Assembly: GCA_944349895.1 (NCBI GenBank) | Contig: CALVNQ010000004.1 | Location: 1 to 59,473 of the forward strand | DNA: 59,473 bases | Source: an uncultured Clostridia bacterium | GTDB taxonomy: Bacteria; Bacillota; Clostridia; Christensenellales; UBA1242 | Direction: 5' to 3' | Part shown: one piece after another, positions 5,377-50,108 of the stretch | Numbering within the stretch: the stretch's first letter is position 1 | Layout: each line of letters begins with the position of its first letter | Notes under the pieces: model-generated | Databases searched by the model: none | Told to the model about the DNA's origin: nothing | What the model saw: only the letters and a program-made list of their open reading frames with translations | Translations under genes and position numbers: made by a program

Positions 5377-6957
5377 ATGATACAAGTAAATAATATATCG
5401 TTAGCTTTTGGGGGAAGAACTCTTTATAAAGATGTAAATTTAAAATTTACAAAAGGCAATTGTTATGGGATTATCGGAGCTAACGGCGCGGGGAAATCAA
5501 CTTTTTTAAAAATTTTAACAGGCGAGCTCGAACCAAGCACTGGTGATGTTTTCATTTCACCAGGCGAACGAATGAGCGTTTTACAACAAAATCAAAACGC
5601 TTTTGATAACGAAACAGTTTTGGATACAGTTTTGCTTGGGCACAAAAGATTAATGGAAATTCAGCATGAAAAAGATGCCCTTTATGCAAAAGAAGATTTT
5701 AATGAACAAGACGGAATTAAGGCAGGAGAGTTAGAAACAGAATTCGCAGAATTAGGTGGTTGGGAAGCTGAAAGTGATGCAAAAACACTTCTTCAAAATT
5801 TAGGCATTGTTGAAGATCTTTATTATGCTTCGATGAAAGATGTTGACCCAAAACTTAAAGTTAAAATTCTTTTAGCGCAGGCTTTGTTTGGGAATCCTGA
5901 CATTTTGGTTCTTGATGAACCAACAAATAACCTAGATTTTAAAACAGCTGTATGGCTTGAAAACTTTTTGCTAAATTTTGAAAACACAGTCATAATTGTT
6001 TCTCACAATAGGCACTTTTTGAACAAAGTTTGCACACATATTTGTGACGTTGATTTTGGCCAAATAAACATGTTTCTTGGGAACTATGACTTTTGGTATC
6101 AGTCAAGTCAGTTAATGGCCAGGCAGTTAAAAGACCAAAATAAAAAAGCAGAGCAAAGAGCAAAAGAGCTGAAAGAGTTTATAGCTAGATTCGCCGCAAA
6201 TGCTTCAAAATCTAAACAAGCTACAAGCAGAAAAAAAGAGCTTGAACGTTTAACAATTGAAGACATAAAACCATCATCTAGAAAATATCCTTTCATTGAT
6301 TTTAGATTTGATCAAGAAATTGGAAAAGAAATTTTAAAAGTTGAGAATTTAACTAAAAAAGGAATGTTTGAAAACCTTACCTTTAATATAGAAAAAGATC
6401 AAAAAGTTGCTTTTTTTGCAAAGAATAGTCAAATTATCACAACTTTATTTAACATATTAACAGGAAAAGAGCAACCTGATTCAGGTGTTATTCATTTTGG
6501 TAAAACAATTTCAGTGTCGTATTTGCCACAAGATAACAACGAATATTTTAATAACTGTTCATTATCAATAGTTGATTGGCTAAGACAATTCTCTAAGGAT
6601 CAAAATGAAACTTTTATCAGGAGTTGGCTTGGAAGAATGTTATTTACTGGGGAAGAAAATATGAAACCTGTAAACGTTTTATCAGGAGGAGAAAAAGTTC
6701 GATGTATGTTCGCTAAAATGATGTTGCAAGGTGCAAACCTAATAATCATGGACGAACCAACAAATCATCTTGACTTAGAAAGCATAACCTCTTTAAATAA
6801 CGGAATGAAAAACTTTAAAGGGCCACTACTTTTCACTTCTCATGACCAAGAAATCATAGAGACGGTTGCAAACAGAATTATAGAGTTTACTGATGATAAA
6901 AAATATATAGACTTCGTAGGCACTTACAATGAATATACTGAAAAATATTTCAATTAA
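5377..6957 (+). CDS. ABC-F family ribosome-associated ATPase (YbiT/YkpA-like)
   Basis: Two ABC domains (GANGAGKST, LDEPTNNLD, LSGGEK, MDEPTNHLD), linker containing ASKSKQATSRKK, no TM segments. Confidence 0.92.
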   Translation: MIQVNNISLAFGGRTLYKDVNLKFTKGNCYGIIGANGAGKSTFLKILTGELEPSTGDVFISPGERMSVLQQNQNAFDNETVLDTVLLGHKRLMEIQHEKDALYAKEDFNEQDGIKAGELETEFAELGGWEAESDAKTLLQNLGIVEDLYYASMKDVDPKLKVKILLAQALFGNPDILVLDEPTNNLDFKTAVWLENFLLNFENTVIIVSHNRHFLNKVCTHICDVDFGQINMFLGNYDFWYQSSQLMARQLKDQNKKAEQRAKELKEFIARFAANASKSKQATSRKKELERLTIEDIKPSSRKYPFIDFRFDQEIGKEILKVENLTKKGMFENLTFNIEKDQKVAFFAKNSQIITTLFNILTGKEQPDSGVIHFGKTISVSYLPQDNNEYFNNCSLSIVDWLRQFSKDQNETFIRSWLGRMLFTGEENMKPVNVLSGGEKVRCMFAKMMLQGANLIIMDEPTNHLDLESITSLNNGMKNFKGPLLFTSHDQEIIETVANRIIEFTDDKKYIDFVGTYNEYTEKYFN

Positions 6958-6986: not shown

Positions 6987-7173
6987 ATCTGCACAGCGCT
7001 TTTGCGTCTTCGTACTCTCTATCTCTTCTTTGGTCTGCCAATTTTGCTTTTTTATTTTTATATATCGAAGCTTCGCTCTGACAAAGTCTGTTTTTGTCTG
7101 GTGTCTCTAAACCGTCATAACGAGTCTTTGCACCATAACCTTCATTCTCAAATTTTTCTTTTCTATAACACAT
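6985..7173 (-). CDS. Small orphan protein (62 aa, highly charged)
   Basis: AAGGAG RBS, upstream TTGACA-17-TATTAT promoter with extended TG, and the stop falls in the shared terminator. Confidence 0.7.
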   Translation of the reverse strand: MCYRKEKFENEGYGAKTRYDGLETPDKNRLCQSEASIYKNKKAKLADQRRDREYEDAKALCR

Positions 7174-7272
7174 TTTTTTCTACTCCTTTGTAATAATATG
7201 CTATATAATAACATTTTGTTCATGCGATGTCAATACCAAAATGTCGAAAAATATAAATTTTTTACGAATAGC

Positions 7273-7301
7273 TTGACAATATTAGATTCTATTCATATAA
7301 T
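7273..7301 (+). promoter_or_regulatory. Sigma-A promoter of glyS
   Basis: Perfect TTGACA-17 bp-TATAAT. Confidence 0.85.
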
Positions 7302-7307
7302 TAGCAT

Positions 7308-7449
7308 ATGCAATGAAGGGGTTGGAATCCCTGAGCAAACGCTTGTCGGCGAAAAGACGTTAATAAGGCAGGTTTATGCAAAGTAGGGTGGAACAGCGAT
7401 TTAAAGTCGCCCCTATAGACAAAAGCATAGACTTTTTTATTATAAGGAG
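7308..7449 (+). promoter_or_regulatory. Glycyl T-box riboswitch, atypical (ultrashort Stem I)
   Basis: Antiterminator-type fold TAGGG-TGGAACA-GCGAT-ttaaa-GTCGC-CCCTA (7384-7415); TGGA pairs with the UCCA end of tRNA-Gly; k-turn TGC-AAT-GA...GA-GCA at 7309-7337. Confidence 0.85.
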
Positions 7450-7454
7450 ATTTT

Positions 7455-8837
7455 ATGAAAGCAAGTATGGAAAAAATTGTAAATCTTTGCAAATCTAGAG
7501 GGATAATCTTCCCAGGAAGTGAAATTTATGGGGGACTCGCCAATGCATGGGATTATGGTCCATTGGGAGTACTAATAAAAAACAACATAAAAAATGCATG
7601 GTGGAAAAAATTTGTTCAAGAAAGTAAATATAATGTCGGCCTTGATTGTTCAATATTAATGAACCCTACGGTGTGGCAAGCAAGTGGTCACCTTGGTGGT
7701 TTTTCAGATCCTCTTATGGATTGTAAAAATTGCAAGTCACGACACCGAGCTGATAATTTAGTTGAGGAATATTTAAAAAAGAAAGGCTTAGAAGAAAATA
7801 TCGCTGGATGGACAAATGAACAATTTGAAAAATATATAGAAGATAAAAAAATTACTTGTCCAATTTGTGGGAAATCAGACTTTACTCCAATAAGGAAATT
7901 TAATCTTATGTTTAAAACCTTTCAAGGTGTAACAGAAGATTCATCTAATATTGTATATTTGCGTCCCGAAACAGCCCAAGGCATATTTGTAAACTTTAAA
8001 AACGTACAAAGAGCAACAAGAAAACGTGTTCCTTTTGGAATAGCACAAATTGGCAAAAGTTTTAGAAATGAAATAACTCCTGGAAATTTCATATTTCGAG
8101 TGAGAGAGTTTGAACAAATGGAGTTAGAATTTTTTTGTGAGCCGGGCAGTGACTTAGAATGGTTCAAATATTGGAAAAATTTTTGTCATCAATGGCTTTT
8201 AGATATAGGAATCAAAGAAGAGAATTTAAAACTTAGAGATCATGAAAAAGAAGAATTGTGTTTTTATTCAAAAGCCACAACAGATTTTGAATTTAAATTT
8301 CCTTTTGGCTGGGGTGAGCTTTGGGGAATAGCCGACAGAACCGATTACGACTTAAGCCAGCATGCTAAATTTAGTGGAAAAGACATGTCATATCAAGATC
8401 CAATAACGAATGAAAAGTATGTTCCTTATGTTATAGAACCTTCTTTGGGAGTAGAAAGACTCATGCTAGCTTATTTATGCAATTCTTATGATGAAGAAGT
8501 GCTTGAAGGAGGAGAAACCCGAGTAGTTATGCACTTCCATCCTATTATCGCTCCTTATAAAGTTGCTTTGCTGCCACTACAAAAAAATCTTTCTGAAAAA
8601 GCAAAAGAAATATATGATGAATTGTCTAAATATTTTATGTGCGATTACGACGAATCAGGTTCAATAGGCAAAAGATATAGACGTCAAGATGAGATAGGTA
8701 CACCTGTTTGCATTACCATTGACTTCGACACTTTAGAAAACAATACGGTTACAGTAAGAGACAGAGATACAATGAAGCAAGATCGAATAATGATAAATGA
8801 ATTAAAGGAATATTTAAACTCTAAATTAGTATTTTAA
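7455..8837 (+). CDS. glyS: Glycine--tRNA ligase, homodimeric (alpha2) type
   Basis: Motifs [45 protein letters not shown]. Confidence 0.97.
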
Positions 8838-8864
8838 AAACGAACTTTACCGTTCGTTTTTTTT
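8836..8864. terminator. Bidirectional intrinsic terminator
   Basis: AAAAACGAAC-TTTACC-GTTCGTTTTTTT between convergent genes. Confidence 0.8.
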
Positions 8865-9588
8865 AATCTTTTCTTGACGAAGTCATAGACAAAGCTATCA
8901 AAACAATTCTTAAAAGAGATAGCAGACTGACAGCCAAAGATGCCACATAAGTGAGAGCGGCAGCATCCAAAACTTTTTTTGCATCAGACAATTCCTGATT
9001 TGTCATAATGTTAAGAGACTCAAGTTGTGATAAAGCTCTTCGAGAGGCATTAAGTTCAACGGGCAAAGTAATTAAATTAATCAAAGCTCCCAAAGAAAAA
9101 ATACCTACTGCCACCCAAATCAATACTTCACCAACAAAAGGAGTAGCTAAAGTAAAAAATAGAATTAATCCTAATAATATAAGAGGGGTAAATAAGGAAG
9201 AGGTAAAATTGCTTAATTTGATAACAGCTAATCTAACTTTCATAGGAAAATATTTTTTTGCATCTTGCAAAGCATGCCCTGTTTCGTGGGCTGCGACACC
9301 GATAGCTGAAATGGAGCAAGAATTCCACACAGGTTCTGAAAGATTGATTCTTTTAGTGATAGGATTATAGTTATCAGTGAGGGAACCTTTAGCTCTCATA
9401 ACTTGGACATCAAAGATACCGTTTTTATCAAGGAGCATTTTAGAGACTTGAGTTCCCGTTAAATTGCAAGAAGGGATTTGTTTAGAAAACTTAGAAAAAG
9501 TAGATTGTACTTTGTTCTGAGCGTACAAAGCGAAAATGATTCCTGGAAGCAACAAAATAGACAAGACGATATATTCCCAATAAAACAT
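8863..9588 (-). CDS. Membrane zinc metallopeptidase (YugP-like)
   Basis: LTDNYNP, VAAHETGHALQ, TLPVELNASRRAL, AAALTYVA motifs. Start moved to ATG 9588 (MFYWEY) behind AAGGAG. Confidence 0.9.
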   Translation of the reverse strand: MFYWEYIVLSILLLPGIIFALYAQNKVQSTFSKFSKQIPSCNLTGTQVSKMLLDKNGIFDVQVMRAKGSLTDNYNPITKRINLSEPVWNSCSISAIGVAAHETGHALQDAKKYFPMKVRLAVIKLSNFTSSLFTPLILLGLILFFTLATPFVGEVLIWVAVGIFSLGALINLITLPVELNASRRALSQLESLNIMTNQELSDAKKVLDAAALTYVASLAVSLLSLLRIVLIALSMTSSRKD

Positions 9589-9604
9589 AAATAACTCCTT
9601 TTTA

Positions 9605-10315
9605 TCAAAATAACTTAGTTTTTTTAACCAAACCACTCCAACCTAAAAGTAGTTTAATTAAATCGCTCCAATAAGTTAATCTAGCGCTTTTTAAAAACGA
9701 CTTAGCCTCTTTTAAAATATTATCTGGAATAAAATTATTTAAAATGGCGACAGCGCGTTTAGAGGCGTCTTTTTCGAAATAAATATTAAACATTTTAATA
9801 ATAATAGCAAAAATGAAAATAGCAACAGCGATAGAAGCTGACAAAATAGAATAAAAAACAAGATCAGGGAAAAAGAGCAATATTAAAGAGCAAATGATAG
9901 CTGGTAAAAACAGTTTACCTAATAAGAAACCAAAAAATTGGAAAATTTTCAAAACTTTTAATTTATTACTTGAAAAATCTTGCTGAGCATGGCCGAGTTC
10001 GTGAGCCACTATAGTGAAAGCTCCGATAGAATCAGAAGATATAGTTTTGTTAGTTAAAATTAAGGTTTTAGACTTTAAATTGTAAGCGTCCCCCATATAT
10101 TTATCAGTTTTAGCCACTCTAAGTTTACCGTTGAAATTAGAAAAATTTTGTTCATTAATCATTTCCAAGACAGACATATGTGCTTGAGATGGCAAAGAAA
10201 ACATTTTTTGATAAACATCTGCGAACTTTTCGTGAGCATAGTTTGCCACCGCAAGCATAGCACTTAAAACTGCTGTAACAAGAATTAAAATTAAAATAAT
10301 CCACCAAATATCCAT
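9605..10315 (-). CDS. Divergent paralogous membrane zinc metallopeptidase (YugP-like)
   Basis: IVAHELGHAQQ, EKDASKRA, SARLTY. No RBS; TTGATA-17-TATCAT ends 6 nt before the ATG. Confidence 0.85.
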   Translation of the reverse strand: MDIWWIILILILVTAVLSAMLAVANYAHEKFADVYQKMFSLPSQAHMSVLEMINEQNFSNFNGKLRVAKTDKYMGDAYNLKSKTLILTNKTISSDSIGAFTIVAHELGHAQQDFSSNKLKVLKIFQFFGFLLGKLFLPAIICSLILLFFPDLVFYSILSASIAVAIFIFAIIIKMFNIYFEKDASKRAVAILNNFIPDNILKEAKSFLKSARLTYWSDLIKLLLGWSGLVKKTKLF

Positions 10316-45497: not shown

Positions 45498-45540
45498 CTG
45501 CTTGACAAATGAAAAACAGACTTATATAATTTGTGTGTTA

Positions 45541-45764
45541 AACGCTATAAGGAAAAAAGAGTATGTTTTTTAAGCGGCTTAAAGTGAGACGGGACAGTGA
45601 AAACCGTTAGTGACTAGCAAAAAACAGAAGACAGTTTTCCAAGTTTAATCGGGATAGCCCGTTAAAGCATAACAACTAAGTGGCTCTTTTTTTTGAGCAA
45701 GTTAGGTGGCACCGCGGAGAATTTTCGTCCTAACGCTTTATTTTTCAGAGCGTTAGTTTTTTTT
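45541..45764 (+). promoter_or_regulatory. Aspartyl T-box riboswitch (canonical, transcriptional)
   Basis: Promoter TTGACA-17-TATAAT (45502-45530). Stem I GGAAAA...TTTTCC with AGTA bulge and GAC specifier (45630-45632), T-box AGGTGGCACCGCG, terminator CTAACGCT...AGCGTTAG plus T-run. Confidence 0.92.
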
Positions 45765-45777
45765 ATAAGGAGAAAAG

Positions 45778-47526
45778 ATGAAAGAAAACATATATAGAAC
45801 TAATAATTGTGGAGAGTTAAGAATAGAAGACGTTGGAAAAAAAGTTAGACTTTCGGGTTGGGTTAACTCTATTAGAAACCTCGGAGGAATAAATTTTTTG
45901 ACATTAAGAGATAATTTTGGAATAACACAACTTTTAATAAGGCAAGACTCTTTATTAAAAGAAGTAACTAAAGAAACAGTAATAAGGATTGAAGGTAAAG
46001 TTGTTGAAAGAGAAAGTAAAAATCCAAGAATGGCGACTGGAGATATTGAAGTCGAAGTTGAAATATTAGATATTTTGGGAAGATGTAAAAATATTTTACC
46101 ATTTGAAATATCAGATGCACCTTCTACTAAAGAAGAATTAAGATTAAAATATAGATTCTTAGATTTGAGAAATCCGGAATTACATGAAAGAATTTTAAAA
46201 AGAGCTAAAATTTTAAAATTTGTTAGAGATAAATTAACTGAATTAGGTTTTACAGAATTTCAAACCCCTATTTTAGCAAACACTTCCCCTGAAGGAGCTA
46301 GAGATTTTATAGTGCCAACGATTTTAGCTCCGGGCGAGTTTTATGCGTTGCCACAATCACCACAACAATTTAAACAACTTTTAATGGTAAGTGGTTTTGA
46401 CAAATATTTTCAAATAGCTCCATGCTTCAGAAATGAAGCAGCACGTGCTGATAGAACTCCGGGGGAATTTTATCAAATAGACATGGAGATGGCTTTTGCA
46501 ACCCAAGAAGATGTTTTTGAAGTTTGTGAAATTTTGGCAACGGAAATATTTAAAAACTTTACAAAATTAGATGTTTGCGAAAAACCATTTAAAAGAATTA
46601 AATGGCGAGAGGCCATTGACCTTTATTGTTCTGATAAGCCAGATTTAAGAAATCCATTAATAGTAAAAGATGTTACAGAAATATTTAAAAACAGTGAGAT
46701 TTCCTTTTTGAAAGAAAAGACGGTAAAAGCTATAAAAATTGATGCTTCACAAAAGTCTAGAAAGTTTTTTGATGAGTTAAGTCAATTTATAGTTTCTATA
46801 GAAGGAAAAGGTGTTGCATGGATAAAAATAAATGAAGGTCAATTAACAGGTTCTATATCAAAAATTTTATCAGAAAGAGAAAAAGATTATTTGATGAATT
46901 CATTTAACTTAAAAGAAGGAGAAGCTGTAGTATTCATTGGAGATGAAGAAGAAAAGGCAATTTATTTGGCAGGAGCTTTAAGAAATGAGTTAGGACAAAA
47001 ATTAGAAATTATTGATAAAAATAAAGTAGAGTTCTGTTGGATAGTTGATTTTCCTTTCTACGAAAAAAACGAAGAGACAGGGAAACCTGATTTTGCACAT
47101 AATCCATTTTCAATGCCTCAGGGAGAAATGAAAGCTCTTAAAGAACAAAACCCTTATGAAATAGTGGCTTATCAATATGATTTAGTTTGCAATGGATACG
47201 AAATGCTTTCGGGTGCAATAAGAAATCATGATCCAGAAATAATGATCAAAGCATTTGAGATAGCTGGATATGATAAAGAAGTTGTAGAGAATAAATTTCC
47301 CGCTTTATATAATGCATTCCAATATGGAGCGCCTCCTCATGCCGGATGTGCGTTTGGGTTTGACAGAATGCTCATGCCGATAATGAACCAGGAGAGCATG
47401 CGAGAGGTAATTGCGTTCCCTTTAAATAAAAACGGAAGAGATTTGTTGATGGGTTCTCCTTCACGACCTTTTGATCAACAACTTAAAGATGTTCATATAA
47501 AATTAGATTTAGAGGAAAGAAAATGA
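45778..47526 (+). CDS. aspS: Aspartate--tRNA ligase
   Basis: [49 protein letters not shown]. Confidence 0.97.

Positions 47527-50033: not shown

Positions 50034-50108
<75 letters not shown>

Follow-up and report, generated by a model that had tools for sequence, protein, structure and literature searches.

The window analysed here, a stretch of 59,473 nt from an uncultured Clostridia bacterium (contig CALVNQ010000004.1), carries glyS behind a short structured leader. Promoter, K-turn, Stem I, pseudoknot, Stem III, T-box core, an AU-rich spacer with a T-run, the Shine-Dalgarno sequence (SD) and the ATG follow one another in this order (Table 1). The genome (G000; 834 kb, 100% complete) is the smallest of its genus, which comprises 154 species representatives. 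A gene for an ABC-F family ATPase lies upstream (5377-6957, forward strand; NF011646, 632 bits, under the cut-off of 762), and a 257-aa ORF on the reverse strand downstream (8863-9636) is without an NCBIfam match. According to their records, the DNA runs containing positions 7200-8200 come mostly from chicken-gut or gut metagenomes (X1-X20, 13 studies); none of the runs listed is an RNA run.

Table 1. Features of the glyS locus, numbered from the first letter of the window
Feature	Positions	Strand	Basis and details
Sigma-70 promoter	7273-7301	+	TTGACA 7273-7278, 17-nt spacer, TATAAT 7296-7301; 12/12 consensus matches; predicted +1 near 7308
K-turn and ultrashort 29-nt Stem I	7309-7337	+	Rfam K-turn alignment; covariation
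Specifier GGA (Gly), followed by purine A7327	7324-7326	+	Loop conservation; glyS downstream; tRNA-Gly UCC present
Stem IIA/B-type H pseudoknot	7340-7358	+	IIA CGC 7340-7342/GCG 7349-7351; IIB GTC 7345-7347/GAC 7356-7358
Stem III with purine-rich flanks	7362-7382	+	Helix 7368-7370/7377-7379, 3 bp
Antiterminator	7385-7414	+	Helix A1 7385-7388/7411-7414; helix A2 7396-7400/7406-7410; Rfam alignment PP near 1
Candidate SD-sequestering fold	7411-7447	+	MFE of 7406-7450, -4.4 kcal/mol
Intrinsic terminator remnant	7413-7438	+	5-bp bulged hairpin 7413-7418/7426-7430, AC, T-run 7433-7438
Shine-Dalgarno AAGGAG	7444-7449	+	Sequence reading; ATG (7455) 5 nt further on
glyS, dimeric (alpha2) glycine--tRNA ligase, 460 aa	7455-8837	+	NCBIfam NF003211, 702 bits vs cut-off 312

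Up to the end of the antiterminator the leader measures about 105 nt. Its K-turn is made of a C-stem (7309-7311/7335-7337), the bulge AAT (7312-7314) and tandem GA/GA (7315-7316 and 7333-7334), and leads into a 5-bp Stem I helix (A7317-G7321 with T7328-T7332) capped by the apical loop TTGGAA (7322-7327). Across the whole class, Stem I consists of the K-turn, 3-4 pairs and a 6-9-nt loop. The pseudoknot motif that follows, CGC-UU-GUC-G-GCG-AAAA-GAC (7340-7358), is similar in sequence to the IIA/B elements of ordinary T-boxes from the same taxonomic order. Since only 2-4 nt separate K-turn and pseudoknot in the 52 leaders described below, there is no Stem II. Stem III is flanked by AAUAAG before and AAA after, and the T-box core reads AGGG-UGGAACA-GCGAU...GUCGC-CCCU (7385-7414), with the bulge TGGAACA at 7389-7395, its UGGA at 7389-7392, and an antiterminator energy of -8.1 kcal/mol.

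At the gathering threshold Rfam reports no T-box anywhere in the window. A tRNA gene at 50037-50108 on the reverse strand (67.9 bits) is the sole match in the window at that threshold. In E-value mode RF00230 aligned end to end with 7304-7417 (35.2 bits, E=2e-6 for the local stretch); the Infernal check thus returned a T-box, but at a score under the gathering score of 93, and it is because of this gap, 35 bits versus 93, that standard annotation misses the leader. The RF00230 columns that align to the leader are those of the K-turn, IIA/B, Stem III and the T-box, while 6 nt take the place of 76 Stem I model positions, and the Stem II of the model has no counterpart in the leader.

We gathered the regions upstream of glyS with a GlyRS probe from 36 genomes of the genus and 24 genomes of other families of the order. 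The short leader is present in 32 genus genomes, that of the window included. In three others (G002, G009, G019) glyS stands without it, and glyS was not found in 2 genus genomes among those probed with GlyRS. In a MAFFT alignment of the 32 leaders (alignment A1, window included, structure drawn by hand) 90.7% of cells are paired, against 34-47% with slid partners; 17/28 pairs changed on both sides, and 0/500 shuffles attained the covariation score. A covariance model, R1, was built from these 32 rows, the window itself being a training row, and 52 leaders were aligned to it (alignment A2). Here, too, 17/28 pairs are two-sided; 92.7% of cells are paired (slid controls, 35-47%) and 0/500 shuffles score as high. 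The 52 leaders are kin, so that the shuffle statistics overstate support and the slid controls are the fairer comparison.

Support is spread over the elements of the leader. In the C-stem and Stem I all 8 pairs show two-sided changes among related leaders, including all 4 C-stem pairs. IIA is 99.4% and IIB 98.7% paired in the 52 leaders; the IIB helix lies outside the covariance model, so its pairing count was not fitted, and two of its three pairs have two-sided changes (G-C to C-G or A-U; U-A to C-G), in only 5 cells in total. All 5 modelled pairs of Stem III covary in relatives, and the window retains 3 of them. The antiterminator helices A1 and A2 are invariant in the 52 leaders. The first A2 pair of T-boxes is usually a G.U 'steric sensor'. 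It is G-C, not G.U, in 52/52 genus leaders (columns 169/188 of alignment A2; G7396-C7410 in the window), a replacement also reported for S. pneumoniae glyQS in PMC11404447.

The specifier loop is UUGGCAA, with GGC-A, in 45/52 leaders, and one base shorter, UUGGAA, with GGA-A, in the other 7/52, the window among them; GGC-A turned to GGA-A because one base was deleted from the loop. A reduced tRNA-Gly set was considered as the reason for the GGA specifier and rejected, as G000 has tRNA-Gly genes with UCC, GCC and CCC anticodons. All three encode U73-CCA at their end, which fits the UGGA of the T-box bulge. Judged by its alignment and covariation, the stretch 7309-7414 that precedes glyS is a true T-box leader with glycine specificity. 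The original prediction therefore holds for the glycyl T-box with ultrashort Stem I and GGA in its apical loop (coordinates included), for a Stem I without AG bulge or distal platform, and for the match of TGGA to tRNA-Gly UCCA. It had also placed one further hairpin at about 7335-7379; what lies there is instead the H-type pseudoknot and the 3-bp Stem III.

The leader is widespread in the genus. At E<=1e-8, R1 found it in 137/151 genus genomes and in 99/102 of those at least 90% complete; the window leader itself scores 102 bits, with the window in the training set. Genus matches of 160-172 nt were considered as forms with a longer Stem I and rejected, as the 45-54 extra nt sit in Stem III: the five leaders L228-L232 (G198, G225, G278, G237, G295) carry them in the Stem III loop, and their Stem I is still ultrashort. 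Most R1 matches of 30-50 bits in other families of the order did not hold up as further short T-boxes either. They are ordinary long-Stem-I leaders of thrS, pheS, metS and aspS, to which R1 aligns only at IIA/B, Stem III and the antiterminator, and second R1 matches near 51 bits in 3 genus genomes are likewise of the ordinary kind.

Short glycyl T-boxes also occur beyond the genus. In the same order, G166 (L071) and G122 (L076) have glyS leaders with a K-turn, an apical-loop Stem I, an adjoining promoter and a terminator, without the pseudoknot, and the glycyl leader of G073 (L081) is of the conventional long type. A pattern scan over one genome per species, which shows presence and not prevalence, gave at least 121 stretches, of which 80 were examined. 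Among the matches listed, 24/80 loci are ultrashort glycyl T-boxes by a strict rule; the pseudoknot is present in 11 of these 24, each from a MAG with Clostridia, Clostridiales or Eubacteriales in its title, and absent from the other 13. Six further loci were judged ultrashort by eye (L122, L125, L129, L148, L161, L166), 11/80 are chance matches by rule, and the remainder are long-Stem-I leaders, again among the matches listed. The Ktedonobacteraceae loci L157 and L160 were rejected as short forms because a long Stem I lies upstream.

The pseudoknot-free form precedes glyQ (PF02091) in Acidaminococcus intestini DSM 21505 and A. massiliensis (L123, L153), and dimeric glyS in MAGs titled Bacilli, Clostridiales and others (blastp against the window GlyRS, 45-74% identity). 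In the two cultured Negativicutes, promoter, pseudoknot-free ultrashort T-box, terminator and glyQ follow each other, which makes them a tractable system for the class. Pseudoknot-free ultrashort GGC T-boxes at L180:401-486 and L122:401-494 precede a serine hydroxymethyltransferase gene (PF00464); these leaders would place glyA under glycine-tRNA control in lineages seldom linked with T-boxes. Their hosts are one Patescibacteria-titled MAG and one titled Gammaproteobacteria, and several such MAG labels look doubtful. Terminators are present in the pseudoknot-free leaders where inspected. Rfam scores of 13 other ultrashort leaders lie between 33 and 51 bits, so that, with the cut-off at 93, they would all go unannotated. 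The minimal glycyl T-box is thus broader than first supposed, and the accompanying claim of a long Stem I in Firmicute glycyl T-boxes was too general, since short ones occur in several Firmicute lineages.

We compared the expression platform of the window with those of its relatives. In 50/51 relatives the antiterminator CCCC strand doubles as the 5' arm of a terminator hairpin, which stops no more than 3 nt from a T-run of four or longer; the energies of these hairpins run from -9.2 to -22.1 kcal/mol, with a median of -15.5. In the one remaining relative a -20.8 hairpin is followed by an interrupted T-run. Because 50/51 relatives carry a strong terminator, we take the leader class to be a transcription attenuator. 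The window copy is the single outlier among the 52 leaders. A pattern scan of 7150-7500 found 0 terminator-like sites, and the best hairpin ending at the window T-run reaches -2.2 kcal/mol, so the absence of a strong terminator noted in the original prediction is borne out. What is left is homologous to CCCCTATG..CATGGGGC+T5 of G187, the nearest relative, which shares 77% nt identity with the window across the leader and the 5' part of glyS. At the terminator site G187 reads CCCCTATGTCAA-TTTT-TTGGCATGGGGC-TTTTT versus CCCCTATAGACAAAAGCATAGAC-TTTTTT in the window: the G-rich 3' arm is absent from the window, and T-run, SD and spacing are as in G187. The loss is not an assembly error, since contigs of three other studies (X6, X9, X10) covering 7300-7460 show no differences to the window.

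Rfam gives 5 further T-box matches in G000 (66-121 bits). Those of pheS, aspS, thrS and tyrS combine a long Stem I with terminator hairpins of -7.9 to -11.9 kcal/mol. The aspS T-box is the internal contrast that had been pointed out at 45541: it occupies 45538-45735 of the window (forward strand, 89.3 bits, just below 93), with a long Stem I, GAA-GAC-A in the specifier region and a -10.9 kcal/mol terminator. The gene behind it (45778-47526) is aspS, encoding a class II D/K/N synthetase that includes a GAD domain. The ileS leader, outside the window (G000:C1:199938-200159, reverse strand, 65.9 bits), has a 3' end that looks atypical, and no T-run-linked hairpin was found in the range scanned by script.

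Several explanations of the locus have to be weighed. One is that the leader is a conventional T-box with its specifier at the GGC of 7348 or 7367, the two sites named as alternatives alongside the original prediction, or a chance likeness without T-box function. The Rfam score of 35.2, far under 93, speaks for it. However, the promoter lies directly before the K-turn, at the same distance in relatives as in the window, and leaves no room for a long Stem I; G7348 is variable (G/A/T) and is a linker base of the covarying pseudoknot; 7367-7369, which belong to the flank and the opening pair of Stem III, also vary (GGC, GGT, GAT, GAC). GGC or GGA is retained in the loop of 52/52 leaders, and covariation favours the short fold. 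We consider this explanation extremely improbable. The best explanation, which we hold to be probable, is a glycyl T-box of an architecture outside the four published classes, belonging to a transcriptional class, of which the window copy is a decayed member that is read through constitutively or is very leaky.

For the window copy itself, constitutive read-through is most likely, and at best it would be a very leaky attenuator. Read-through would be the default because the antiterminator (-8.1 kcal/mol) beats any competing fold (-4.4) without tRNA; the energy rules behind these values are only rough for AU-rich RNA, and weak hairpins might terminate with the help of factors. The whole-leader MFE (-37.1 kcal/mol), whose long-range pairing breaks up Stem I, was set aside as an artefact of AU-rich folding without co-transcriptional order. 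Factor-stimulated weak terminators are known in Bacillus, and the copy might still be a tRNA-dependent attenuator in which a weak hairpin (the 5-bp 7413-7418/7426-7430, or the A-tract/U-tract 7421-7425/7432-7436) and the T-run terminate with the help of NusA or NusG unless antiterminator and tRNA prevent it. The T-run is retained at the homologous position, the sensing domain is intact by its R1 score, and other terminators of the AT-rich G000 are weak too, down to -7.9 kcal/mol. Against this stand the -2.2 kcal/mol of the T-run hairpin, the empty pattern scan, a default state that would be ON, and the position of the window as sole outlier among 52 leaders; we regard a functioning attenuator as unlikely. 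Still less likely, and unsupported by the window sequence and by the relatives, is the translational switch of the original prediction, in which, after loss of the terminator, the CCCCU strand of A1 (7411-7418) pairs with the SD region (7440-7447) and uncharged tRNA-Gly would lock an antisequestrator and free the SD. In translational T-boxes this antiterminator strand does serve as anti-SD, which makes the proposal reasonable as a mechanism. The predicted pairing of CCTATAG..AAAAG with CTTTT..TTATAAGG exists and is the MFE of 7406-7450 (C7411-G7447, C7412-G7446, 7414-7418/7440-7444, 7421-7425/7432-7436); it excludes A1 and masks A7444, G7446 and G7447 within the SD. But it is at chance level: when the CCCC strand and the SD were kept fixed and the 29 intervening bases shuffled, 494/2000 sequences were at least as stable with the SD GG paired to the same strand, and 1228/2000 paired the SD GG to the CCCC strand regardless of energy. 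The CCCCU strand thus meets AAGGAG by composition alone. A functioning T-box has the OFF fold as the more stable of the two; with -4.4 for the sequestering fold and -8.1 for the antiterminator, the window shows the opposite order. Moreover, the arrangement is absent from relatives, 50/51 of which, G187 included, have terminators, and the spacing from SD to T-run is ancestral. An alternative hairpin, 7426-7457, covers SD and AUG; being compatible with the antiterminator, it cannot switch. In favour of translational control are the short Stem I, similar to that of translational classes, an intact aptamer beside a lost terminator, which needs an explanation, and the same logic in actinobacterial ileS T-boxes (PMC7583486, PMC10482949).

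From conservation, we infer that the class as a whole is functional; tRNA binding, a two-point mode of tRNA recognition and the regulatory outcome are predictions. tRNA-Gly would be gripped at two points only, the anticodon by the specifier in the loop and the uncharged UCCA end by the UGGA of the T-box bulge. The latter contact would stabilise the antiterminator over the far stronger terminator and let RNA polymerase enter glyS; charged tRNA would be incapable of it, and transcription would stop at the T-run. In the window copy the 3' arm of the terminator has eroded, with the sensing part left in place. The simplest reading of this copy is regulatory decay, in a genus with at least three species without the leader; as glyS without the leader in G002, G009 and G019 indicates, loss of T-box control of glyS is tolerated there. 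The sensing part is fully intact; a long-past loss of regulation would not lead one to expect this, and some residual or altered regulation may persist.

A leader without elbow platform and Stem II S-turn that is conserved, with a strong terminator, in well over 100 species and in several other lineages would show that two contacts suffice for tRNA-Gly. If this is true, it would be the smallest natural T-box, at about 105 nt, for structural work and for engineered tRNA sensors. T-box regulation is under-annotated in small-genome gut Clostridia and in Bacilli-type and Patescibacteria-titled MAGs, and the window copy is a natural case of a riboswitch with a decayed expression platform and an intact sensor.

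Sherwood, in 2015, is said to have described class III, the ultrashort Stem I ileS T-boxes of Mycobacterium and Nocardia. Four classes are distinguished in PMC10482949: class I has a long Stem I with IDTM and a Stem II; class II, the glyQS type, is glycine-specific and has a long Stem I with IDTM and a linker for Stem II; class III has a short Stem I, carries its specifier in an apical loop of 5-6 nt and requires Stem II; class IV has an intermediate Stem I. According to the same text, classes I and II generally act on the termination of transcription, classes III and IV mostly on the initiation of translation, and what strengthens the three-base-pair hold on the tRNA anticodon is the IDTM, the Stem II S-turn or both. 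PMC7583486 states that transcriptional T-boxes generally need the IDTM, an elbow platform, for fast tRNA capture, that truncated Stem I's without Stem II hardly bind tRNA, and that glycine T-boxes are spared Stem II since GGC:GCC is a strong duplex. We found no short-Stem-I transcriptional glycyl T-box in full-text literature searches, whose coverage of key T-box papers is incomplete, so that some beyond their reach may mention one; the leader class is probably undescribed, in line with what the original prediction had thought possible. We would put at slightly less than even the chances of a wider proposal, that the genus leader and its pseudoknot-free cousins (Acidaminococcus, Bacilli-type, Patescibacteria-titled MAGs) form an undescribed functional fifth T-box architecture, which would act co-transcriptionally and recognise tRNA-Gly by anticodon and NCCA end alone, without elbow platform or Stem II, with the window copy caught after terminator loss, en route to constitutive or translational control.

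With class II (B. subtilis and G. kaustophilus glyQS), as portrayed in PMC10482949 and PMC7583486, the leader shares glycine, GGC or GGA followed by a purine, the K-turn, the absence of Stem II, a Stem III with purine flanks, UGGA for U73-CCA and the gene for glycyl-tRNA synthetase, and its relatives share the competition of antiterminator and terminator. It departs from class II in several respects: Stem I has 29 nt versus about 90 and presents the specifier in an apical loop in place of an internal one; AG bulge and distal loop (IDTM) are missing, and with them the elbow contact; the IIA/B-type pseudoknot of the genus form occupies the site of the single-stranded linker of class II; and the first A2 pair is G-C and not G.U in all 52 genus leaders. 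With class III it has in common a short Stem I without IDTM, a small apical specifier loop followed by a purine, the K-turn and the IIA/B pseudoknot. However, class III needs the Stem II S-turn, which holds the codon-anticodon duplex, is isoleucine-specific, is found in Actinobacteria and is translational, whereas the leader class has no Stem II, is glycine-specific, occurs in Clostridia and other lineages and has a terminator in 50/51 relatives. Overall, the architecture matches none of the four published classes: it combines a class III-like Stem I, a class II-like absence of Stem II and a class I/II terminator, and has neither augmenting device.
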